This document shows positions 3,406-47,598 of a stretch of DNA of 64,000 bases, in pieces. The notes under the pieces were generated by a model that was not told the origin of the DNA, made no database searches, and was given only the letters and a program-made list of their open reading frames with translations. Source of the DNA: Candidatus Micrarchaeota archaeon (GTDB lineage Archaea > Micrarchaeota > Micrarchaeia > Micrarchaeales > CABMGC01); NCBI GenBank assembly GCA_021810455.1, contig JAJZIU010000001.1, positions 4,613-68,612 on the forward strand, given 5' to 3'. Both the position numbers and the translations under genes were made by a program. Position 1 is the stretch's first letter. Each line of letters opens with the position of its first letter.

Positions 3406-3491
3406 TGCGCCAGCCGGGATTTGAACCCGGGCAGCGAGCTTTTTCCGTTGAAATGGGAAGCTCGAATCCTACCAGGCTAGATTACTGGCGC
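3406..3491 (-). tRNA. tRNA-Gly(CCC) with a 13-nt intron at the canonical 37/38 site
   Basis: The minus-strand read folds by hand as GCGCCAG-TA-ATCT-AGCCTGGTA-GGAT-T-CGAGC-[TTCCCA|tttcaacggaaaa|A]-GCTCG-CTGC-CCGGG-TTCAAAT-CCCGG-CTGGCGC-A. All four stems pair. The T-arm and acceptor resemble archaeal tRNA-Gly. No encoded CCA. The 5' end lies 8 nt after the stop of the upstream ORF. Confidence 0.75.
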
Positions 3492-20765: not shown

Positions 20766-20780
20766 AAAGATTTAAATATA
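20766..20780 (+). promoter_or_regulatory. BRE/TATA-like promoter for tuf-rps10 (AAAGATTTAAATATA)
   Basis: Same core as at 5661-5674 and 40351-40360. Lies ~85 nt upstream of the tuf ATG, which carries AAGGTGA (20854-20860) 4 nt upstream as a Shine-Dalgarno-like site. Confidence 0.45.
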
Positions 20781-20864
20781 TTATTAGAGCATATTAGAGA
20801 GTGTAATACAGAGGAGTCCGGTTAGCGCAAATGCGCTTTATTATATACTACTTAAGGTGAACTA

Positions 20865-22130
20865 ATGGCAGAAAAACAACACATGAATTTGATCTTTATA
20901 GGACATATAGACCACGGCAAGTCGACAACAGTAGGCAGATTGTTATACGATACAAAAGCAATATCGGAACAGGACATGAAGAAAATGAAGGAAGAAGTTG
21001 CAAAGTACAACAGACCTTCATTCGAATTTGCCTTCGTTATGGACCAGCTTAAAGAGGAGAGAGAAAGAGGAATAACAATCGACATAATGCACAGAGACTT
21101 TCAAACTCCGAAATACTACTTCACAATAATAGACGCCCCTGGGCACAGAGACTTCGTAAAAAACATGATAACAGGAGCAAGCCAAGCAGATGCCGCAGTG
21201 TTAGTCGTATCATGCGTTGACGGTGTACAATCACAGACCAGAGAGCACGCATACTTGGCTAAGGTTCTAGGAATAAATCAACTGATAGTAGGATTGAACA
21301 AGATAGATGCAGCCAATTATGACAAGGCAAAGTATGAAGACGCAAAATCCAAAGTAAGCGATCTTTTGAAAACAGTAGGATATGATGTTAGCAAGATGCT
21401 GTTCGTACCTTATTCTGCACTTGAAGGGATAAATGTAAGCGAAAAATCGGACAAACTTTCATGGTACAACGGACCTACACTTCTTGCTGCACTTGACATG
21501 TTTGTAGTGCCTCAGAAGCCTGTTGACAAACCGTTAAGACTCCCAATACAGGACGTTTATAGCATTGCAGGTTTTGGTACAGTTCCAGTTGGAAGAGTAG
21601 AAACAGGAGTAATGAAACCTGGTGATCAGGTAGTGGTTATGCCTGGTGGCGCAAAGACAGAAATAAAGAGCATAGAGATGCACCATCAGCAATTACAACA
21701 GGCAGAACCAGGAGACAATGTTGGATTCAATGTCAAGAACATAGATAAGAAAGATATCAAAAGAGGAGACGTTATAGGACCTGTTACAAGCCCTCCGACA
21801 GTAGCTCAAGAGTTTACTGCACAGATAGTTGTAATAAATCACCCCACAGCAATAGCCCCAGGATACACACCAGTGTTCCACATACACACAGCGCAGATAG
21901 CGGCTACAATAACAGAGATAGTGGAAAAGAAGGACCCTAAGACAGGGCAAACAGTACAAAAGAATCCTGAATTCATAAAGAATGGAGATGTAGCAATAGT
22001 AAGGATTAAACCTTCAAAACCAATAGTTGTTGAGAAGTACGGAGACTTTCCACACCTTGGAAGATTTGCAATAAGGGATATGGGACAAACAGTAGCTGCA
22101 GGAGTAGTTCTTGATGTAACAAAGAAGTGA
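20865..22130 (+). CDS. tuf: Translation elongation factor EF-1 alpha
   Basis: 421 aa. [22 protein letters not shown] (G1), DAPGHRDF (G3), NKID (G4). Confidence 0.97.
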
Positions 22131-38865: not shown

Positions 38866-39639
38866 TTGAAAAACACCAAGATAATGTACGATAAAAAAGC
38901 AAAACTTAAAGAGCCCATACTACTGGTTGGGTTGCCTGGTATAGGTAATGTTGGAAACCTTGTAGTGGAACATATTCGAAGAGAACTGAATGCAAAGAAA
39001 TACGCGACGTTGAGATCCCCTCACTTTCCTCACCAAACAATAATGTTAAAGAATGGTAGCATGCGTTTAGTGAACAACCGATTCTACCACTGCAAAAACA
39101 AAAACGGCAAAAGCCTAATATTGCTCGTTGGAGATGCACAGGCTGGAGGACCAAAAGGTCAGTATATAGTAAATGATAGGATAGTTCGTTTTTTCAAAAA
39201 AATAGGCGGAAAGCAAGTATATACCATAGGAGGGTATAGTGCAGGGAACAACTATGTGCAAAATCCTCGTGTATTCGGTGTTTCCACAAGTAAAACAAAC
39301 AGAGAAAATCTATCTAAAAACGGAGTTATTTTTGGACAGGCGGCAGGATCTATTTGGGGCTCTGCAGGAATCATCCCTGTTTTTGCAAACGACTATGGGA
39401 TACCAAGCGCATGTATAATGGGGGAAACAGGAATGCTTGAGATTGATGCTAATGCAGCCAAAGCGGTTTTAGAATTGCTAAAAAACATATTAAACATAGA
39501 TATAAAACTGGATAATCTCGAACGCATTAAAAAGGAAACTGAAAAAATACTTAAAAATATAGAGGAAGCATCAAAAGAACAGGGAGATCAACAAACGCCA
39601 GGGTACAAGAGCAACGAAAATCTTTCTTACATCAGATAA
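38866..39639 (+). CDS. PAC2-family protein (proteasome assembly chaperone-like, COG1938)
   Basis: 257 aa. PILLVGLPGIGNVGNLVVEHI matches the PAC2 N-terminal motif, with a coiled C-terminal tail. The start could be TTG 38866 or ATG 38884. Confidence 0.72.
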   Translation: MKNTKIMYDKKAKLKEPILLVGLPGIGNVGNLVVEHIRRELNAKKYATLRSPHFPHQTIMLKNGSMRLVNNRFYHCKNKNGKSLILLVGDAQAGGPKGQYIVNDRIVRFFKKIGGKQVYTIGGYSAGNNYVQNPRVFGVSTSKTNRENLSKNGVIFGQAAGSIWGSAGIIPVFANDYGIPSACIMGETGMLEIDANAAKAVLELLKNILNIDIKLDNLERIKKETEKILKNIEEASKEQGDQQTPGYKSNENLSYIR

Positions 39640-40298
39640 GATAAGAAAACAACTACAAAAGAAAGCACCGCTCCAGCAACAGCGCAAAAAGCGTTTGATG
39701 TATACTTGTTACCAATTCCATTTTCCTCAAAGTATCCCGCAACAGAATCAATCAAATCTCCTACAAACCCTGAAACTACTGCTACTCCAACAAACACAAT
39801 ACTTTGCGATACATAAAAAGTGCAGATTCCTATAAACAAAGAACCGATAAACCCGAAAACGAGACCAGCAAAAGTAACTCCTCCTGAAACTCCAGGTTTC
39901 ACTTTTCTCATGGTAAGTAGCATGATTGGTTTTCCAAAAAGAACACCTAACTCACTAGAAAACTTATCCGCAGTAACTGCACATATACTTGAAACATATG
40001 CGATGACAATGGCCATACCTAAGACGCCATTTCCACCACTCAAATAATATAATATCGCCAAGATGAACGGTACAAATCCATTCGCAACTACATTTTTCCA
40101 TCCCCTACGTTCTTCATAAACTTTTATTTTCTTCTTTGTGCTTTTACCAATCATCGTAACTATTGCTGATAGAAACAGGAACAGAAGCAGCAAAGCTAGG
40201 AAAAACAAACCCAGGCGTCCTCCCGCGATCAAAACCGAAGCGCCTAATAGAAAAGCCAAAACAAGGCCTCTAAGGTCCAGGGTAAGAAATGTATTCAT
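39627..40298 (-). CDS. Integral membrane protein (DUF92/TMEM19-like)
   Basis: 223 aa with ~6-7 TM helices. Gly-rich helices (GVSGGVTFAGLVFGFIGSL, VSGFVGDLIDS) resemble DUF92. The 3' end overlaps the convergent PAC2 gene by 13 nt. Confidence 0.55.
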   Translation of the reverse strand: MNTFLTLDLRGLVLAFLLGASVLIAGGRLGLFFLALLLLFLFLSAIVTMIGKSTKKKIKVYEERRGWKNVVANGFVPFILAILYYLSGGNGVLGMAIVIAYVSSICAVTADKFSSELGVLFGKPIMLLTMRKVKPGVSGGVTFAGLVFGFIGSLFIGICTFYVSQSIVFVGVAVVSGFVGDLIDSVAGYFEENGIGNKYTSNAFCAVAGAVLSFVVVFLSYLM

Positions 40299-40350: not shown

Positions 40351-40360
40351 GATTTAAATA
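40351..40360 (+). promoter_or_regulatory. TATA-like element (GATTTAAATA) upstream of the acidic mini-ORF
   Basis: Same core as the tuf and histone/sRNA promoters. Lies ~43 nt upstream of ATG 40403, leaving room for a short leader containing GAGGTG (40391-40396). Confidence 0.4.
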
Positions 40361-40402
40361 GTTTTCTAATAATAGGTATTTGCTTTGAAAGAGGTGTCTC
40401 GT

Positions 40403-40516
40403 ATGGCAAAGAAAGAACAAAAAGACGACGATGAAGAAGACGAAGAAGACGAAGAAGACTGGGACGAAGACGAAGAAGACGAAGACTGGGACGAAGACAT
40501 GGATGATGATGAATAA
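40403..40516 (+). CDS. 37-aa hyper-acidic mini-protein (not in ORF track)
   Basis: Manual translation gives MAKKEQKDDDEEDEEDEEDWDEDEEDEDWDEDMDDDE. ATG is preceded by GAGGTG 6 nt upstream and by a TATA-like box. The stop (40514-40516) directly abuts the stop of the convergent giant gene (40517). The antisense track ORFs here are Ser- or Leu/Arg-repeat artefacts. Confidence 0.5.
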   Translation: MAKKEQKDDDEEDEEDEEDWDEDEEDEDWDEDMDDDE

Positions 40517-43500
40517 TCATCCGTATTTTTTGCGGATTGCGTAAATTGCCAATACTGAGGCAAGCGCAATCGCTAAAATAACTACTCCTAAGTTTCCATA
40601 TCCTAACTCTGCTAGTCCTATGTCCACCCCTTCTTGGGTATAATTAGGGAACCATTGGTAATTGAGTACATTAAATGTAGTGTACGATTTCGAGGTTGGA
40701 TCTGCAGATGAAGACAACCACGCTTGACTGGCTTGTAATGGTTGTGGGGAAGGAGACCCGTAAAACCTTGCAATTATCGTGGCACTCCCTATCCCACAAG
40801 CGTATATGCTGTTGCTAAAGAAACCCATCGAATTTGTTGTTGTTGTACCTACTAGCCCAAGCTGTGATGTGCACGTCCCTGTACCGTTGCTAAATATCGG
40901 TTGGCAGAATCTCTGTTGGCCATTTTGTCCCGGAGAACATGTTTGTGGAATATTTTTGTTTCCATCATTACCGTATATATTACAATTAGTATCTACTGGT
41001 ACAAGCAACGAATTTGGGGGAGGATTGCATTCTCCAAGCGAATTGTAGGCTGTTGAGTATGTTATGGTATTTGCGTTATTTGTCTGCCCTAAATAAACAG
41101 GATTTGCCAAAACGCAATTGCTAGGTATCTGTGCTCCGCTTCCAACATCTCCAAAAGCGCAAAGCATTGCATTTTTTTCATTAGATGGGTTTTGAAGTGC
41201 ATTGTATCCTATATAATTGATATTTGTATCATAATACAGATATATTAGCCCGTTTCTGAGAGGATAAAATTTATTGTTTATTGGACTGTAATATCCAACA
41301 GTACCATTTATGAAAATTTTTGTATCGTTTGCGTTATTCGAATTGACTACCGGGGTTACCTGTAGTGATATGCTTGTTGTATTCGCTATATCCGTATCAA
41401 GCGGGGCGTATATTGCGTTGCCGAATCTATCTCTTAATACAAAAACAAGCCTCTGATAACCTAGGACATTGGCAACACTTCCTGCGCCGTATTTAAAACT
41501 TGAACTGTTTATATTAAAACTCATAGGATTGTTGTAAACAATCTGCTGGTACCAATCAAAAAGCTTCACGAATGTAGGCAATGCTGAATTAATGTTGAAT
41601 ACGTTTTGATAAGATATGCCTGTCCTGGTATTAGTCGCTATCTTTTGATTTCCAACAAGAGCATACGCGGGTCCATTATAAGGGCCGTAAGGCAAAGAAG
41701 ATATTGTTTGATAACTCAAAGGCCCTAATTGGGTATTAAAGACAGTATTTATTATGTTGTACTCTAAAAGATCGGTTGCATTAAGCACCACTTGGTTATT
41801 CGTTGTTGGTCCTGTGGTAGCATTTACGTAAATGCTACCAAACTGCTTGTCTCCCTGAATATTCATTATCATCTGTGGATTTATGTAAGAACCTAGGTCA
41901 GACATGTTCGGAACATAATAATTACTTCCTTGGGGCCCGCTAAACTGAAGATAAATTCCACCCCCTTCAACATTTGCAGAAAGTGAGTTGGATCTTGCAT
42001 TTATTATTCCATAAGAAAAAATCTCGCTTGAACTTGAACTGGAATGACTTGATGGTGGGTTACTACACGATGCACCCTGCTGTATTGGTACCCCCGTGCC
42101 TGAAAATTGCCAATTCTGACTGGTTGAGTATGTGTATTTGTACGGTACCAACACATAACCTATAATATTGCTAGTCATGCTTACCGGGGAGGTAACCACC
42201 GAAGTTCCTGGAGGTATTGAAACAGACGTTCCCGTTATGCCACCAAGTTCCGAATTTGTAGGAGGTGTAAACCCTGAAAAACAACTCGAGTATGAACTCG
42301 AATTCAAAGAACCAGATTGCAAACTATTTATACACGTTTGATTGTAACTCTGCGATTGCTGTGACTGTGGACTTCCTCCTCCTCCAGTGAACGCAGATCC
42401 GAATAAATTCTGATATGATAATATTCTACCCGATCCCGTACTCTCCAAATACTTGAAAGGATCCGCAACCGTGTATATCGGTGCTGCAAGCTGATCTAAA
42501 TAAGAACTAGGTTTGCACGAGTTAGAATTCACTCCGGTATCTACAAAACATGAGAATAAACCTATTCCATCCAACAATCTTGTGTAATTTTCAATGCTTA
42601 CTTTTGCAAACAGAAGTTCTCCGTAGTCATTGGCAACAGTCTGGCAGTTAAGAAAACAGCCATTGTTGATGTGCTGCTGCGATGGGAATAAGAAGTCAGC
42701 AGTATAGTTATAATTTACTGAAAAACTGGACTGAGCTTCTCGTGGCACGCCACAACCTATGCCTATTCCAAAAGGCAGATTGAAGCAAGCTATGGCTTGA
42801 ACATTCGGTCCTAGTGACAAATAGCTCGATTTCAAGTTGTTTGGATTATAATCGCACGATTCTGAAGAACAAAAAGAAACATAGTTGCTATTATGTCCAC
42901 TTTCTAACACGTTTGCAGATAATACCCACCCATAAGGTGGATATGTATCATTAGGATAGAAACCAGGAGTGGCTGTTGTATAATACGTTGAAGTTGGTTG
43001 CCCCCCTGCACCAACACACTTATACTGGTATGTAGGAGCCTCTCCAGTTCTTGCACTAGTAACTCCCAAAGCACTGCCTGGACATGTTGATGAAATCTGT
43101 GGAGAACAGCCAACCGCAGCATTGCAATTAGGAACTACTCCACATTTAGATACTTGTGGTGTATTACATGTTGCCGCTCGCTGTGAATACATGTCGTTGA
43201 ACTTCGTAGGGTTAAATGGCACATTGGTTCCAGAAGAATTTATGACTCTAAGTAATAACGTATTGAAAAAGACACCTTGTCCTGAAATCCCGGGCACTGG
43301 CCCCGGAGTGCCAACGTACCCTCCCCAATTGTCTAAAACATACAAATATCCATTAACATCCTGAATACCTATTGGGTGGTGAAATGCTTGCGTATCAAAT
43401 GCAAGACCTTGATACTTCTGCGTTTGTACTGCTGATAGTGCAGACTTAATCCAACCTGGTGTAATACCATATAATCCGCCATTCTCCAAATACGTCGCAA

Positions 43501-46060
43501 TATTAAGATTCGCCAAGGTTGTTGATACACTCTCACCAGGAATAATTCCTGGAGACGCGGTGGTGTTCGAAACAGGCAAATTAGCATTATAATCAAAAGT
43601 AAGATCGATACTGTCTTCTAAGGCAAGCGAATTCCCGCTATAAACCTCTATGCTGCCATAAGATGGGCTTGCTAAATAAATCTGTTGTCCGCTTGGTGAA
43701 ACTGTAATCTCCTGGAATTGTTTATCTATTGTATTTGTAGTCACTGCTGGTGAACCTGTCAAGATGCCAGTTATCTCAACCAATGAGGGATGTGTTGATT
43801 GTATAGGGCCTCTGTTAGTTTGGATTGATGTCGTGGTACTACCAACAATGAAAACATCCCCATTATTATCTACTGATATATTGAATGGTGTAAACCCTTG
43901 CAATTGCGAAAAACCATTCAAGTCAGATTGGGAAATCAAATAACTATAACCGTTTTCACTATTTGCCACAAGCCCCCAATAGTTACTCCATGCGGTATTC
44001 CATTGCGAAGTGCAGCTGCTTTCAGATGCAGGATTGCAACTCACTTGTTGGATTGCTGATGTGGGTGTCTGTGGATTTGTAAAAGACCCTTTAGGTATGG
44101 CTCTTAAAACATTAAGTTGATATGCTCCAGATGTCCCAGTAAGTACGAATATGTAGTCATTGGGCATAACTGCCACGGATAGTGGACTCGGTAATGCGGA
44201 AGGCGGTCCAGATATTATACCACAGTTTGGACTACCTTCGGTACACCAAGGTAGACCGTTCTGCCCTTGGAGACAATTATTGTACTGTTTGCCATTGTAC
44301 GTATAAAGTCCTATTCCACCATCCATTGCTCCAGAGTAGGTTGTGGGCATGTATTGACAGTATGCCCCTACAAACTCGTTTACTGCTGGATCATCAAATG
44401 TCTGCCAATAACAAAACTTCTTACCCTGGACAACACCTGGGCAATTCTGATAGTTACTTCCAAAATATTGGATATAATCTTGTGCCCACTGCATTTCGCA
44501 TAACGGATTAAATTCCCAATTTGAAGCTCCTGTGGAGCAACTAGAAGGATTATAATTTGGTACTACTGGGTTTTGGTCATTCTGCAATAAGCCACAAGGA
44601 CATTTTCCACTTCCACCATATGTTGCTCCAGGATAGAAACCACTTTCAGCATTAGCTATAGAAACTATTATTTCCAATTCCGTTCCTGTAAAACCGGCTT
44701 GTTGCGCACATGCTACAACTTGTGAAAACTGCATCTTATAATGTGGAGAATTTTGGAAGTTTTGGTCAGGACAAGTTGCGGTTTGACTTGAACTAGTCTG
44801 TGCCTGTCCTGTTTGACTTGTGGTTGTTGTAACGATTCCTAGGCGACCTCCAACTCCTCTTACTGGTTGTGTTACTGCGCTTCCTAAGTTATTAAGAATA
44901 GTGCCTATTTGTGCAAGTGTATCTTCCTTTCCATTAAATGCACAAAGAAGACTGTCGAGACTTAAAACTACCTGGCCACTACTCTGGCAAGTTAAAAGAC
45001 TACCGCTATAATTTACAAACAAAATACCTGGTATGTCTACACTGAATGGATCAACTATTGATGGAGTATAATAATTCCAAGGGCTGAATACGTCATACTG
45101 CAAGTTACTTATCTGTGGAACCATGGTGGATAAAGACCCTGGTACGCCTATACTATATCCATAAGTAAGATATGGTAACGCTGGGGTATCAAACTGTGAC
45201 ATTATCGGATTCCCATTGTTATCCACTCCTGTAACTACGTTGAAAGGTATGTAACTATTTGCTATACTTCTCAATGTGGTCGTTTCACCGTAATTATACG
45301 TATACTGGCAACCATTCTCATCGTATGTTAGATCCTGCTCATTTATCTGTTTCGACTGTGGCAACCGTGCATTAGCTCCTTCAAAATTTGCAAAAGTTGC
45401 ACTCCAAGTCCATATATCATTCTGCGCGAAAGAAGGAACGCCGTTGAATATGTACGTGTTCGTTGCAAATCCGTTAGACAATTCCCCATCTACCATCGGT
45501 GTATAAGCTATATTCTTGACTTCTGCATTACCCGGATTGCCAACTTGCAGTGGGCCTACTGATGCCTGAGCGAGAGAAGATTGAGACCAGGTTACTGTGG
45601 TCACGAGTGTCAACTGACTCACAAGTGAACCCTGTGTGTTAAGACACGGCGCACCCGCAACGAACGGCACAATCCCGCTATAAAACAACACGTTAGATGT
45701 TGGGTCTGATGGCACATTTTCACATGTAAGAAACTTCAAGGCCTCCTGTTGATTTTGATTAGCAACTTGTAATACTGGGGATTCCTTGTAAATCTGTCCT
45801 TCTGGAGTTGAACTTTCCGAAGATGAAAAAACACCCGAATAGCTTGTAGTAAACGGAACCGTTATGGTGCTCGAAGCACTTCCGGAAGAAGGTTGTTGAA
45901 ATACAACATTATTAAATCCTGAATTTGATGGCGTTTCAAAAGATGCGTTGTAAAAATGCGATGTTAATAAAATCCCAAGTGCAAAAAATACAAGAGAAAG
46001 TACTAGTAAACATGAAAATAGAAAAGGCCATGCCTGGTCTTTTTTATCCTTAGCAACCAT
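40517..46060 (-). CDS. Giant (1,847 aa) Cys-rich surface protein with N- and C-terminal hydrophobic anchors, an SLT/lysozyme-like segment and NHL-like repeats
   Basis: Uninterrupted 5.5-kb ORF. N-terminal WPFLFSCLLVLSLVFFALGILL and C-terminal VVILAIALASVLAIYAIRKKYG. IANAESGF...CGLLQ lies at residues ~468-493. Blades include PIGIQDVNGYLYVLDNWGG. The composition is S/T/N/G-rich with few charged residues, many Cys and many N-x-S/T sequons. Confidence 0.85.
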   Translation of the reverse strand: MVAKDKKDQAWPFLFSCLLVLSLVFFALGILLTSHFYNASFETPSNSGFNNVVFQQPSSGSASSTITVPFTTSYSGVFSSSESSTPEGQIYKESPVLQVANQNQQEALKFLTCENVPSDPTSNVLFYSGIVPFVAGAPCLNTQGSLVSQLTLVTTVTWSQSSLAQASVGPLQVGNPGNAEVKNIAYTPMVDGELSNGFATNTYIFNGVPSFAQNDIWTWSATFANFEGANARLPQSKQINEQDLTYDENGCQYTYNYGETTTLRSIANSYIPFNVVTGVDNNGNPIMSQFDTPALPYLTYGYSIGVPGSLSTMVPQISNLQYDVFSPWNYYTPSIVDPFSVDIPGILFVNYSGSLLTCQSSGQVVLSLDSLLCAFNGKEDTLAQIGTILNNLGSAVTQPVRGVGGRLGIVTTTTSQTGQAQTSSSQTATCPDQNFQNSPHYKMQFSQVVACAQQAGFTGTELEIIVSIANAESGFYPGATYGGSGKCPCGLLQNDQNPVVPNYNPSSCSTGASNWEFNPLCEMQWAQDYIQYFGSNYQNCPGVVQGKKFCYWQTFDDPAVNEFVGAYCQYMPTTYSGAMDGGIGLYTYNGKQYNNCLQGQNGLPWCTEGSPNCGIISGPPSALPSPLSVAVMPNDYIFVLTGTSGAYQLNVLRAIPKGSFTNPQTPTSAIQQVSCNPASESSCTSQWNTAWSNYWGLVANSENGYSYLISQSDLNGFSQLQGFTPFNISVDNNGDVFIVGSTTTSIQTNRGPIQSTHPSLVEITGILTGSPAVTTNTIDKQFQEITVSPSGQQIYLASPSYGSIEVYSGNSLALEDSIDLTFDYNANLPVSNTTASPGIIPGESVSTTLANLNIATYLENGGLYGITPGWIKSALSAVQTQKYQGLAFDTQAFHHPIGIQDVNGYLYVLDNWGGYVGTPGPVPGISGQGVFFNTLLLRVINSSGTNVPFNPTKFNDMYSQRAATCNTPQVSKCGVVPNCNAAVGCSPQISSTCPGSALGVTSARTGEAPTYQYKCVGAGGQPTSTYYTTATPGFYPNDTYPPYGWVLSANVLESGHNSNYVSFCSSESCDYNPNNLKSSYLSLGPNVQAIACFNLPFGIGIGCGVPREAQSSFSVNYNYTADFLFPSQQHINNGCFLNCQTVANDYGELLFAKVSIENYTRLLDGIGLFSCFVDTGVNSNSCKPSSYLDQLAAPIYTVADPFKYLESTGSGRILSYQNLFGSAFTGGGGSPQSQQSQSYNQTCINSLQSGSLNSSSYSSCFSGFTPPTNSELGGITGTSVSIPPGTSVVTSPVSMTSNIIGYVLVPYKYTYSTSQNWQFSGTGVPIQQGASCSNPPSSHSSSSSSEIFSYGIINARSNSLSANVEGGGIYLQFSGPQGSNYYVPNMSDLGSYINPQMIMNIQGDKQFGSIYVNATTGPTTNNQVVLNATDLLEYNIINTVFNTQLGPLSYQTISSLPYGPYNGPAYALVGNQKIATNTRTGISYQNVFNINSALPTFVKLFDWYQQIVYNNPMSFNINSSSFKYGAGSVANVLGYQRLVFVLRDRFGNAIYAPLDTDIANTTSISLQVTPVVNSNNANDTKIFINGTVGYYSPINNKFYPLRNGLIYLYYDTNINYIGYNALQNPSNEKNAMLCAFGDVGSGAQIPSNCVLANPVYLGQTNNANTITYSTAYNSLGECNPPPNSLLVPVDTNCNIYGNDGNKNIPQTCSPGQNGQQRFCQPIFSNGTGTCTSQLGLVGTTTTNSMGFFSNSIYACGIGSATIIARFYGSPSPQPLQASQAWLSSSADPTSKSYTTFNVLNYQWFPNYTQEGVDIGLAELGYGNLGVVILAIALASVLAIYAIRKKYG

Positions 46061-46110: not shown

Positions 46111-47598
46111 TTACATGATGTATATAGAGAAGCGCCTTATCGCTCGTTTACCAAAAATGTAGAACCTATTGCTATTCTTTTTAACATCTTTTATCAAGGG
46201 TTTATATCTGGCCTTTTCTTCGGGACTAAGTTTACCCTCCTTCACAATTGTTTGCTTTTTGCCTTCGACTATCTGCGTCTCTGTTTTACTTATTATGTCC
46301 TTCTTTACCATGCTGTACCATTCGTCAAGAGTATTTCCATGCGCCTTGATCATTCTTATGAAATCCCTCATTTCTATCTTTCTCTTCTTTCCTGTTCTAT
46401 CTTCTTCAGCTGCTGGTATTAATGCTGCTTTATCACAAATCTCTTCTATATCTGCCTGTGAGAAACCCATCGATGCTCTGGCCAGTCTGCCAAAATTCAT
46501 TCTCCCCAAAGGCATTTTCCTTGTGTTGTATATGAAAGCATGTTTTCTTGTTTTATAATCTGGAGGAGGCACATATATCGATTCTCCAAAACGTTTGCTT
46601 CTCTTAAGTGCAGGATCAATATCCCACGGTTGGTTTGTAGCACCTATTACAAATATGCCTTCAGGATTCTTCTCTATGCCATCCATTTCTTGCAAGAACT
46701 GGTTAACTGCCATTCTCATATAACTCTGCTGTTCTCCACCTCCCTCTCTTTTCATACCTAACGCATCTATCTCGTCAAAAAATATTATTACTGGGGTATT
46801 TTTCCTTGCCTGTTCGAATATGGCATGCATATTCTTTTCAGTATTTCCTGCATACATATCCACAATTTCATTAATCCTTGCAATCATAACGTTTGATCCA
46901 GTTTCTCCACCTATTGCATTTACCAGATATGTTTTTCCATTTCCAGGAGGCCCGTAAAAAATAACTCCCAATCCCAATTTTTTCCCGTACGCTTTCAACA
47001 GTTCTGGTTTTCTTATAGCCAGTATTATATTTTCATAGATGAGCTTCTTCTCCCTTTCCATTCCCACTACGTCTTTGAAAGTGATGTTTGACTTATGCCA
47101 TCTGACTTTTTTTAACTGTCCCTCCTCAACAACAGTTTCAGAAGATCCTCCCACCTTGGTTTTTTCTGATTTCTCTTCAATATCCTGCTTACCTAGTTTT
47201 GGCATAAGTTGTTCAAGTCTGGCCTTTGCCTGTTCATAATTGGGATTTCTGCTAAGAGCCTTTTCATACCATTCCTTCGCTCCTACATAATCATGCTGAT
47301 ATTCCGATATTATACCCATAACGTACGGTGCATCGTGGCTATTCGGTTCCATGTCCATAACTTTCTCTGCGTCTCTGGTAGCTTCGGTATACTTATTAAC
47401 TATGGCATAAGCTAATGCTCTGTTGAAATACGCACTGCCGTAATTGGGGTCTTCTTTTATTGCTTCAGAATAAAACTCGATGGCATCTTCGAATCTGTTT
47501 TCTTCAAAAGCTTTCCCCGCTTTAACATAGGCTTCCTTAGCTGCAGGATTCTGGGTATCCTTTCTCTCCTCCTTCTGTTCCTGCTCGGAAGCTTCCAT
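46111..47598 (-). CDS. TPR-repeat AAA+ ATPase (classic-clade AAA with an N-terminal TPR domain)
   Basis: 495 aa. About three TPR repeats (FEDAIEFYSEAIKEDPNYGSAYFNRALAY..., AKEWYEKALSRNPNY). Walker A GPPGNGKT, Walker B IIFFDEID, and second region of homology ATNQPWDIDPALKRSKRFGE. Confidence 0.85.
   Translation of the reverse strand: MEASEQEQKEERKDTQNPAAKEAYVKAGKAFEENRFEDAIEFYSEAIKEDPNYGSAYFNRALAYAIVNKYTEATRDAEKVMDMEPNSHDAPYVMGIISEYQHDYVGAKEWYEKALSRNPNYEQAKARLEQLMPKLGKQDIEEKSEKTKVGGSSETVVEEGQLKKVRWHKSNITFKDVVGMEREKKLIYENIILAIRKPELLKAYGKKLGLGVIFYGPPGNGKTYLVNAIGGETGSNVMIARINEIVDMYAGNTEKNMHAIFEQARKNTPVIIFFDEIDALGMKREGGGEQQSYMRMAVNQFLQEMDGIEKNPEGIFVIGATNQPWDIDPALKRSKRFGESIYVPPPDYKTRKHAFIYNTRKMPLGRMNFGRLARASMGFSQADIEEICDKAALIPAAEEDRTGKKRKIEMRDFIRMIKAHGNTLDEWYSMVKKDIISKTETQIVEGKKQTIVKEGKLSPEEKARYKPLIKDVKKNSNRFYIFGKRAIRRFSIYIM

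Follow-up and report, generated by a model that had tools for sequence, protein, structure and literature searches.

A short hyperacidic ORF convergent with a giant gene is very probably a conserved micro-protein gene of Micrarchaeota-like archaea

The open reading frame (ORF) at 40403..40516 on the forward strand of the window, as we call the whole 64-kb stretch of DNA analyzed here, is in all likelihood a real and conserved micro-protein gene that is probably highly expressed. Nine distinct orthologs of 28-42 aa were found on Micrarchaeota-like contigs. The D/E reading frame, the ATG and a Shine-Dalgarno-like (SD-like) motif are kept in 9/9 of them, a TATA box is present in 8/9 members checked, and substitutions between relatives accumulate at third codon positions. 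The peptides appear to form a new family of a broadly known kind. As to function, we tentatively propose that the product is a disordered polyanion whose binding partner is basic and may be encoded in the cluster of the convergent giant gene. The features of the locus are as follows.

39627..40298, reverse strand: DUF92 membrane protein gene, divergent neighbour, sharing a 104-nt intergenic region with the ORF
40351..40360, forward strand: BRE/TATA-like promoter core GATTTAAATA, 42 nt upstream of the ATG
40372..40382, forward strand: conserved 11-mer ATAGGTATTTG between the TATA box and the SD-like motif, one exact copy in the window
40391..40396, forward strand: SD-like motif GAGGTG, 6 nt before the ATG
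40403..40516, forward strand: coding sequence (CDS) of the hyperacidic protein, 37 aa, 28 D/E, 3 K, net charge about -25
40436..40498, forward strand: 27-nt (9-codon) internal tandem duplication, from TRF, an exact 18-mer in two copies and alignment
40499..40531, forward strand: terminator-like hairpin with T6 (40526-40531), from a terminator-like site and the sequence
40517..46060, reverse strand: convergent giant gene, 1847 aa, with an N-terminal signal/TM segment, a Pfam-less ectodomain and a C-terminal TM anchor
46111..47598, reverse strand: TPR-AAA gene, located upstream of the giant gene; product with three TPR repeats (TPR domain at residues 20-133) and one Cdc48-D2-like AAA ATPase domain

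The ORF runs from the ATG at 40403 to a TAA at 40514-40516, which directly adjoins the TGA (40517-40519) of the convergent 1847-aa gene, and its translation is MAKKEQKDDDEEDEEDEEDWDEDEEDEDWDEDMDDDE*. On re-reading, the sequence, the ATG, the two DWDED motifs and the abutting stop reported in the earlier note proved exact, but its count of 29 D/E among the 37 residues had to be lowered to 28 (76%). Residues 8-19 are D/E throughout, and the only hydrophobic residues after Met1/Ala2 are W20, W29 and M33. Beyond Lys7 trypsin would find no cleavage site. The same note had named a 21-mer, GACGAAGACTGGGACGAAGAC, as the repeated DNA unit; this is found as a single exact copy, and the unit that is exactly repeated is the 18-mer GAAGACTGGGACGAAGAC, with two copies 27 nt apart. 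TRF correspondingly returns a period of 27 nt, 2.2 copies and 91% matches. Judging from the alignment, the duplication is specific to the window lineage and produced the second DWDED motif as well as the window's first Trp; the first anchor position in the orthologs is L or F. When all six frames of the 64-kb window were scanned, no comparably acidic stretch was found elsewhere. The ORF is therefore not a chance feature, being the sole hyperacidic stretch in any frame.

The ORF had been described as untracked. This holds for the protein databases used, which exclude products shorter than 40 aa, but not for gene callers: the exact window peptide is indexed in 30 blocks and was called as a gene on every metagenome contig examined (24 blocks). 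The suggestion that slippage in the repeat varies its length found no support. Six contigs from six samples carrying the exact peptide show 0-1 mismatches over up to 5 kb; they are clonal and therefore uninformative on evolution. Between the related loci L011 and L142 there are 7 substitutions and no indels. This test of slippage is a weak one, because the look-up retrieves exact peptides only.

Relatives of the window were reached via homologs of the giant protein and later via homologs of a basic membrane protein described below. The orthologous peptide genes sit beside, and convergent with, giant-gene homologs of 31-45% identity to that of the window. Short acidic ORFs at the 3' end of giant-gene homologs, which the earlier note had proposed to look for, thus exist, and their reading frame is conserved. 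The members, with the identity of the giant gene to that of the window, are listed below.

L011: 45%; peptide MANKKDTKDEDEEEDEDDEDLDEDEGDEEDWDEDFDDED
L142: 44%; peptide differs from that of L011 by one D>E; flanked by DUF92 and PAC2, like the window
L013: 37%; peptide MAKKEEDESDDEDSEDDEFDDESDDEEDWDEDMDSDE
L012: 33%; peptide MAADDEEDSDEEDDDDFSDDEEDMDDEE, 28 aa, uncalled
L014-L016: 37% over 30% of the query; peptide M(TM)VKKLENAADSDEDDDDEDFDNDSDDDDEDYDETDEF
L139/L140: 31%; peptide MAKSDDEDTNDENDDDSDEDTDDDSEEGDDDFDSEESEEF
L143: reached via the basic-protein family, giant identity to the window not measured; peptide MAKKDDDEDTNDDNDDEDSDEDMDDGGDEDDEDFDSEESEEF, uncalled
P0016/L137: further family member, on short contigs without locus context

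In about 200 kb of related loci, hyperacidic ORFs are confined to this position, with one per locus. Two further loci, L141 and L144, contain the giant and basic genes and have no peptide ORF in the flanks examined.

Comparison of the members indicates that the sequence evolves as a coding sequence. Differences at the first, second and third codon positions number 3/2/18 between the window and L011, 6/5/15 between the window and L013, and 0/0/7 between L011 and L142, the last comprising six synonymous changes and one D>E; the stop codon of this pair also changes from TAG to TGA. All indels in the family are multiples of three and keep the frame. Frame-breaking indels in relatives, which had been named as evidence against a gene, did not occur, and the D/E frame is the only one that is open in every family member.

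The family alignment revealed a common architecture. An M-A-K-K-type cap is followed by a first acidic run of 12-15 D/E residues, anchor 1 (W/L/F), a second acidic run of 8-10 residues, and anchors 2 and 3. Anchor 2 is W/Y/F/M, and anchor 3 is either D-E-D followed by M/F and an acidic end, with the M/F four residues on, or a C-terminal D/E-E-F. Two or three hydrophobic positions are thus conserved against a D/E background. The C-termini read MDDDE, FDDED, MDSDE, MDDEE, ETDEF (two peptides) and SEEF (two peptides). Because the sequences are of low complexity, the homology of the W-type and the F/Y...DEF-type sub-types rests mainly on position, promoter and architecture. The peptide is probably intrinsically disordered.

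The expression signals are good by archaeal standards, and those given in the earlier note were recovered: GAGGTG lies 6 nt upstream of the ATG, and the box placed about 43 nt upstream and said to be shared with tuf is the 10-mer GATTTAAATA, at 42 nt. This 10-mer occurs twice in the 64 kb, the other copy being upstream of the aEF-1alpha (tuf) gene (20865..22130). An exact TTTAAATA box is the element found in the 8/9 members, 30-51 nt upstream of the ATG, and a GGTG or GGTC motif precedes the ATG by 6-9 nt in all orthologs. Within the window, an SD-like motif is found in about 16/50 genes (about a third), and many genes look leaderless. The 11-mer ATAGGTATTTG is identical in L011/L142, L013 and L012 and probably covers the transcription start or an operator. 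Over the 70 nt upstream of the peptide gene, L011 and L142 are identical despite the seven silent or near-silent third-position changes in the CDS, and therefore the leader or promoter itself is constrained. GAC:GAT usage is 11:4 in the ORF, 18:11 in the aEF-1alpha gene and 82:170 in bulk genes; the GAC>GAT bias of the ORF hence resembles that of aEF-1alpha and differs from that of bulk genes. T-runs follow the peptide stop in most orthologs. In the window, the T6 run is antisense to the AAA AAA (Lys-Lys) codons that encode part of the RKKYG tail of the giant protein. From these signals we infer that the peptide gene is probably strongly expressed.

The giant protein is probably a surface protein, because it has an N-terminal hydrophobic segment and a C-terminal TM anchor. 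Its tail after the TM helix is the 5-residue basic RKKYG. Its homologs have a lysozyme-like SLT_3 domain and are labelled Micrarchaeota, Micrarchaeia or Marsarchaeota. The giant gene is the conserved tail-to-tail neighbour of the peptide gene, either directly or with one or two genes between them. On the other side, the upstream neighbour varies by lineage, while the giant-gene side is constant. The DUF92 arrangement of the window recurs in L142; tRNA-Ala(TGC) takes its place in L013, L014 and L143, and unrelated genes of 462-520 aa are found upstream in other lineages. The window's neighbours are of archaeal type (aIF2-alpha, TFIIE-alpha, a PAC2 protein and DUF92). The closest genome matches of DUF92 are Micrarchaeota MAGs at 41-54% identity; in these distant Micrarchaeota synteny is lost and no peptide lies beside DUF92. 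The upstream gene of L012, 480 aa, gave a weak LanC-like match (E=0.0018, below the cut-off). A role of the peptides as RiPP precursors, suggested by this match, was rejected, as they lack Cys and the 462-520-aa upstream genes are not mutually homologous.

A second family recurs on the convergent side. Proteins of 355-484 aa with a conserved N-terminal TM helix, a G/K/R-rich region after it and no Pfam domain are encoded immediately convergent to the peptide gene in L012, L014, L139/L140 and L143. Their net charge is +21 to +29 (computed for L012, L014 and L139). The peptide gene is always tail-to-tail with the last gene of the giant unit, and in most lineages this unit includes the basic membrane protein. 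In L115, which belongs to another lineage (GC 30%), a 33-aa acidic ORF, MDIDDEDEEEDEDEEDWDEDFDDEEEEPEDEEE, with GATTTAAATA 30 nt upstream, is tail-to-tail with a TM protein of 534 aa whose net charge is +33; a comparison of this protein with the basic TM family gave an hhalign probability of 21%, which is only suggestive of homology. No homolog of the basic family was found within the 64-kb window, so that the proposed partner is not adjacent there, and the peptide-convergent gene of the other lineages showed no homology to the C-terminus of the window's giant protein.

That the giant-gene side stays constant while the upstream genes vary supports a functional tie between the peptide and the giant/basic-protein unit, short of proof. 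The linkage could also be inherited synteny, because several loci share tRNA-Ala, NAC, DUF424 and GT2 neighbours as well. On the reading that we tentatively favour, the peptide would be a free-standing, intrinsically disordered polyanion of 28-42 aa, conserved across Micrarchaeota-like DPANN archaea. It would draw a Lys/Arg-rich partner by long-range electrostatics, and its hydrophobic anchors would insert into small pockets, so that the partner might be shielded, competed for or tethered. Such a mode would be similar to that of DSS1/Sem1, prothymosin-alpha, poly-D/E chaperones and W-/Y-acidic linear motifs. The best candidate for the partner is the basic protein with a membrane anchor that most relatives encode in this gene cluster. 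A more far-reaching version seems doubtful to us: in a membrane module centred on the giant host-contact surface protein, the micro-protein could be a chaperone or 'electrostatic glue' for the Lys/Arg-rich portion that lies in the cytoplasm. It could then be an independent archaeal counterpart of DSS1/Sem1 or prothymosin-type proteins, perhaps occurring in other DPANN archaea too, and would have escaped annotation because it falls below the length cut-offs of databases.

Alternatively, the polyanion could mimic nucleic acid and occupy the DNA/RNA-binding surface of a basic nucleoid, transcription or ribosomal protein. Its target might be a histone/Alba-type protein, RNA polymerase or an OB-fold protein, and it would act as a chaperone or inhibitor independently of the surface-protein genes. 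DSS1 mimics DNA on RPA, and histone H1 is a ligand of prothymosin-alpha. A net charge of about -25 over 37 residues combined with aromatic anchors would suit such a role, as would the housekeeping-like expression signals and the retention of the peptide in the window lineage, which lacks an adjacent basic membrane protein. We nevertheless consider this unlikely, since the gene is not linked to nucleic-acid-binding genes and the giant surface-protein unit is its sole constant neighbour. Moreover, DNA mimics are common in viruses, yet no related small ORFs were present in the viral contigs scanned.

A further possibility is that the act of expression matters rather than the product. Translation of the N-proximal D/E run, through Mg2+- or polyamine-sensitive ribosome destabilisation, or transcription as such could set the extent of read-through into the 3' end of the convergent giant/basic mRNA, or of pairing with it. 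Runs of D/E close to the N-terminus destabilise translating ribosomes and lead to stochastic abortion in bacteria and eukaryotes (PMC9718836), and the run of this peptide, beginning at codon 8, is of that kind; this observation also counts against the reading that we favour. In the window, L011, L142, L013, L139 and L143, the convergent stops are either adjacent or separated by 1-14 nt, so overlap of the two transcripts at their 3' ends is unavoidable. In addition, the last codons of the giant gene contain the T6 terminator of the peptide gene, and the first oligo-T on the reverse strand past the giant stop appears to be antisense to the KEQK codons of the peptide. The distance to the convergent gene, however, widens to about 55-102 nt in L012, L014 and L115, and no same-strand gene lies downstream that could be regulated. 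A sensor that depends only on composition would leave the conserved hydrophobic or aromatic positions, the MAKK cap and the length unexplained, and the strong SD-like motif and aEF-1alpha-like codon bias favour efficient peptide production. On balance, we regard a regulatory or antisense role as improbable.

As a polycarboxylate in a symbiont with a reduced genome, the peptide might also buffer or store cytoplasmic Mg2+, Ca2+, Fe or polyamines. The D/E content and the strong-looking expression signals would fit this idea. It is very improbable all the same, as it explains neither the conserved aromatic anchors nor the position beside the giant gene nor the short fixed length, and no metal-handling genes occur in the neighbourhood.

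The earlier note had proposed that the acidic C-terminus docks, like the EEVD tails of chaperones, into the TPR domain of the TPR-AAA ATPase (46111..47598), with the peptide as its ligand, adaptor or regulator. TPR-AAA gene, giant gene and peptide gene are indeed clustered in the window, L011 and L013, and in 4/9 peptides the position -4 from the C-terminus is hydrophobic, like the Met of M-EEVD. Hop TPR1, PP5 and CHIP served as references in an alignment of the TPR domain and three orthologs. In Hop TPR1 the two-carboxylate clamp consists of K8, N12, N43, K73 and R77, with equivalents in PP5 and CHIP; the numbering of the reference sequences was matched to the known clamp positions. In the window and the three orthologs, only 1/5 clamp residues is present, the second-repeat Asn (N43 equivalent). 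The remaining positions are Y/V, G/K, D and V, with the third-repeat Lys replaced by Asp and the Arg by Val, and these substitutions are invariant among the orthologs. The TPR domain has a net charge of -7 and consists of three repeats, which is not the six-repeat KLC type. The TPR-AAA gene is absent from the 5-10 kb flanks examined in the peptide-bearing L012, L014, L139 and L143; the L142 contig breaks off 633 nt upstream of its own giant gene, and L010, a close relative of the window, has TPR-AAA on a contig that stops short of the peptide position. Among the C-termini of the family there is no conserved [M/I]EEVD motif, and the terminal residue varies (E, D or F). Based on the clamp residues, charge, synteny and variable C-terminus, we rejected TPR-AAA as the receptor of the peptide, and docking of this kind is highly improbable.

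That the ORF is not a gene at all, but a chance frame in a GAA/GAC array or part of a conserved 3' UTR or terminator of the giant gene, is scarcely credible: the DNA is repetitive and of low complexity and several alternative frames are open as well because of the triplet repeat, but the D/E frame alone stays open in all members, with third-position substitutions, in-frame indels and start and promoter signals as given above, and other genes separate the peptide gene from the giant gene in some loci.

The genomes of DPANN archaea are tiny and rich in unexplained genes, and contact with host cells is believed to be mediated by giant surface proteins of these archaea. A conserved micro-protein that is probably strongly expressed and is linked to a giant-gene cluster would be a new and easily synthesised handle for peptide pull-downs. 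The family would rank among the shortest and most acidic conserved proteins known. It also demonstrates that length cut-offs (<40 aa in the databases used) conceal conserved families, and the D/E run from codon 8 poses the question of how the archaeal ribosome translates such a sequence.

Database searches placed the family outside described ones. The window peptide has no Pfam or NCBIfam match at E<=10, including PF05160 (DSS1/Sem1), and a PDB profile search with the peptide family gave 0 matches at E<=10. An alignment of the family against human and yeast DSS1/Sem1 reached an hhalign probability of 0.1%. Searching a 5.8-billion-protein database with a padded 4-sequence alignment returned one member, mis-started, because acidic words swamp candidate selection and products below 40 aa are absent. 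An exhaustive HMMER search of 1.84 billion representatives returned two members, both of the F/Y...DEF sub-type and with over-extended starts. Among the matches listed in a DNA scan of metagenome contigs for [DE][DE]WDED[MFIL]D, most were unrelated proteins, with L013 and L115 in addition; applied to viral contigs, the motif turned up no small acidic ORF. In the literature searched, no hyperacidic small protein is described for Micrarchaeota or archaea.

Among the known systems is DSS1/Sem1 (PF05160), a small acidic and disordered protein found in the proteasome lid, BRCA2 and TREX-2 complexes. Its anchors are a handful of conserved aromatic residues (F, W), it begins with M-S/A-x-K-K, and it wraps basic grooves on its partners. 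Like DSS1/Sem1, the peptide is small, free-standing, highly acidic and presumably disordered, with aromatic anchors and a K-K start. In contrast to it, the peptide is half as long and archaeal (DPANN) rather than eukaryotic, and PCI-protein or BRCA2 partners are not expected in the window organism. Moreover, DSS1/Sem1 has a C-terminal helix, whereas the two acidic/aromatic blocks of the peptide end the chain, so the resemblance is compositional. Prothymosin-alpha and poly-D/E proteins are disordered polyanions that bind or chaperone basic proteins. They share with the peptide an extreme D/E content, presumed disorder and presumed charge-driven binding, but they are eukaryotic, at least three times longer and without such aromatic anchors, and there is no homology. 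The EEVD tails of Hsp70/Hsp90, bound by Hop, PP5 and CHIP, are similar in their acidic C-terminus, in the hydrophobic -4 residue of some members and in having a TPR protein nearby in the window. The peptide differs in that the clamp residues are absent from the local TPR domain (1/5 kept) and its terminal residues are not conserved, and in being a whole protein instead of the tail of a chaperone.

In IRD-type acidic leader peptides (the bacterial mgtL concept), a consecutive D/E run also lies close to the N-terminus, but here no same-strand gene follows in any locus and the non-acidic positions are conserved. W-/Y-acidic motifs, in which a Trp or Tyr flanked by Asp/Glu binds the KLC TPR with a strong electrostatic component, are often paired (PMC6214655); the window peptide has two EDWDED, and orthologs have DYDE. 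In the SKIP W-acidic peptide TNLEWDDSAI, a Leu at p-2 fills a defined site of the groove (PMC6214655), whereas the window motif is E-D-W-D-E with a Glu, not a hydrophobic residue, at p-2. Such motifs are parts of large eukaryotic adaptors, while the peptide stands alone, and in place of the six-repeat KLC TPR with its basic groove the local TPR has three acidic repeats and is non-syntenic in most lineages. Taken together, the family lies outside the described families and resembles DSS1/Sem1, prothymosin-type polyanions and W-/Y-acidic motifs in its presumed mode of action and not in ancestry.

The genes of an uncharacterised family of strongly basic proteins are, in every case, located directly downstream of the giant-gene homolog. 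These proteins are membrane-anchored, with an N-terminal transmembrane (TM) helix followed by a G/K/R-rich region, and the net charge of the four members computed ranges from +17 to +29. Pfam returned no match for the family, and no member was found in the 64-kb window. Wherever the acidic peptide gene is present, it lies tail-to-tail with the basic gene. The members are located on the following contigs:

Basic TM family members
L139:16786-17853
L012:10406-11545
L014:14325-15779
L141:18465-19760
L143:9001-10206
L144:9001-10329

In several lineages, a divergent tRNA-Ala(TGC) gene is found upstream of the peptide gene, a place that is occupied in the window by a DUF92 gene.

tRNA genes
L013:15942-16013, tRNA-Ala(TGC)
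L014:16073-16144, tRNA-Ala(TGC)
L143:10467-10538, tRNA-Ala(TGC)
L139:19791-19862, tRNA-Ala(TGC), one gene farther from the peptide gene
window 3406-3491, minus strand, tRNA-Gly(TCC)

At 86 nt, the tRNA-Gly(TCC) gene exceeds a standard tRNA in length, and an intron or extended arm may be present.

In the peptide gene, the interval from the TATA box to the Shine-Dalgarno-like motif (SD) includes the 11-mer ATAGGTATTTG (window 40372-40382), which has one exact copy in the window. It is kept upstream of the peptide ATG in L011, L142, L013, and L012, in which the giant protein shares 33-45% identity with that of the window, and it may represent a gene-specific operator or initiator element. The aEF-1alpha gene (region 20769-20864) has the same GATTTAAATA core as the peptide gene; since this core is located approximately 87 nt upstream of the ATG and is followed by the SD AAGGTG, the transcript should have a long leader. 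Many other genes of the window are seemingly leaderless, their ATG being preceded at 25-35 nt by a TATA-like box.

At the convergent 3' ends, the oligo-T stretch of each gene corresponds to Lys codons of the other (window 40517-40531 and 40410-40424). The KK in the tail of the giant protein is encoded antisense to T6 at 40526-40531, and A5 at 40419-40423 provides the first minus-strand T5 past the giant gene's stop. Because of this arrangement, the two mRNAs probably overlap across the entire small ORF.

The protein collections searched do not contain products of <40 aa, and the only indexed members of the peptide family are those with over-extended start codons (46-48 aa). The family is therefore effectively invisible to protein-level homology searches.

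Small acidic Trp-rich ORFs (45-84 aa) with [DE]WDEDFD, for example MVDDELKKTDEGLIDEEDFDEEDWDEDWDEDDWDEEDWDEDFDEEDEDFDTDDEDW, also occur in unrelated organisms with a GC content of 26-64%. On the metagenome contigs carrying them (L036, L053, L095, L107, L119, L127, and L128), their contexts showed no resemblance to the peptide locus.

A GC-30% contig from another lineage carries a tail-to-tail pair, with GATTTAAATA 30 nt upstream of the acidic ORF:

L115:363-497, plus strand, 33-aa ORF MDIDDEDEEEDEDEEDWDEDFDDEEEEPEDEEE
L115:600-2204, minus strand, 534-aa TM protein, net charge +33

This may be the peptide and basic-protein gene pair described above, beyond the Micrarchaeota clade sampled; for homology of the TM protein to the basic family, hhalign gives a probability of only 21%.
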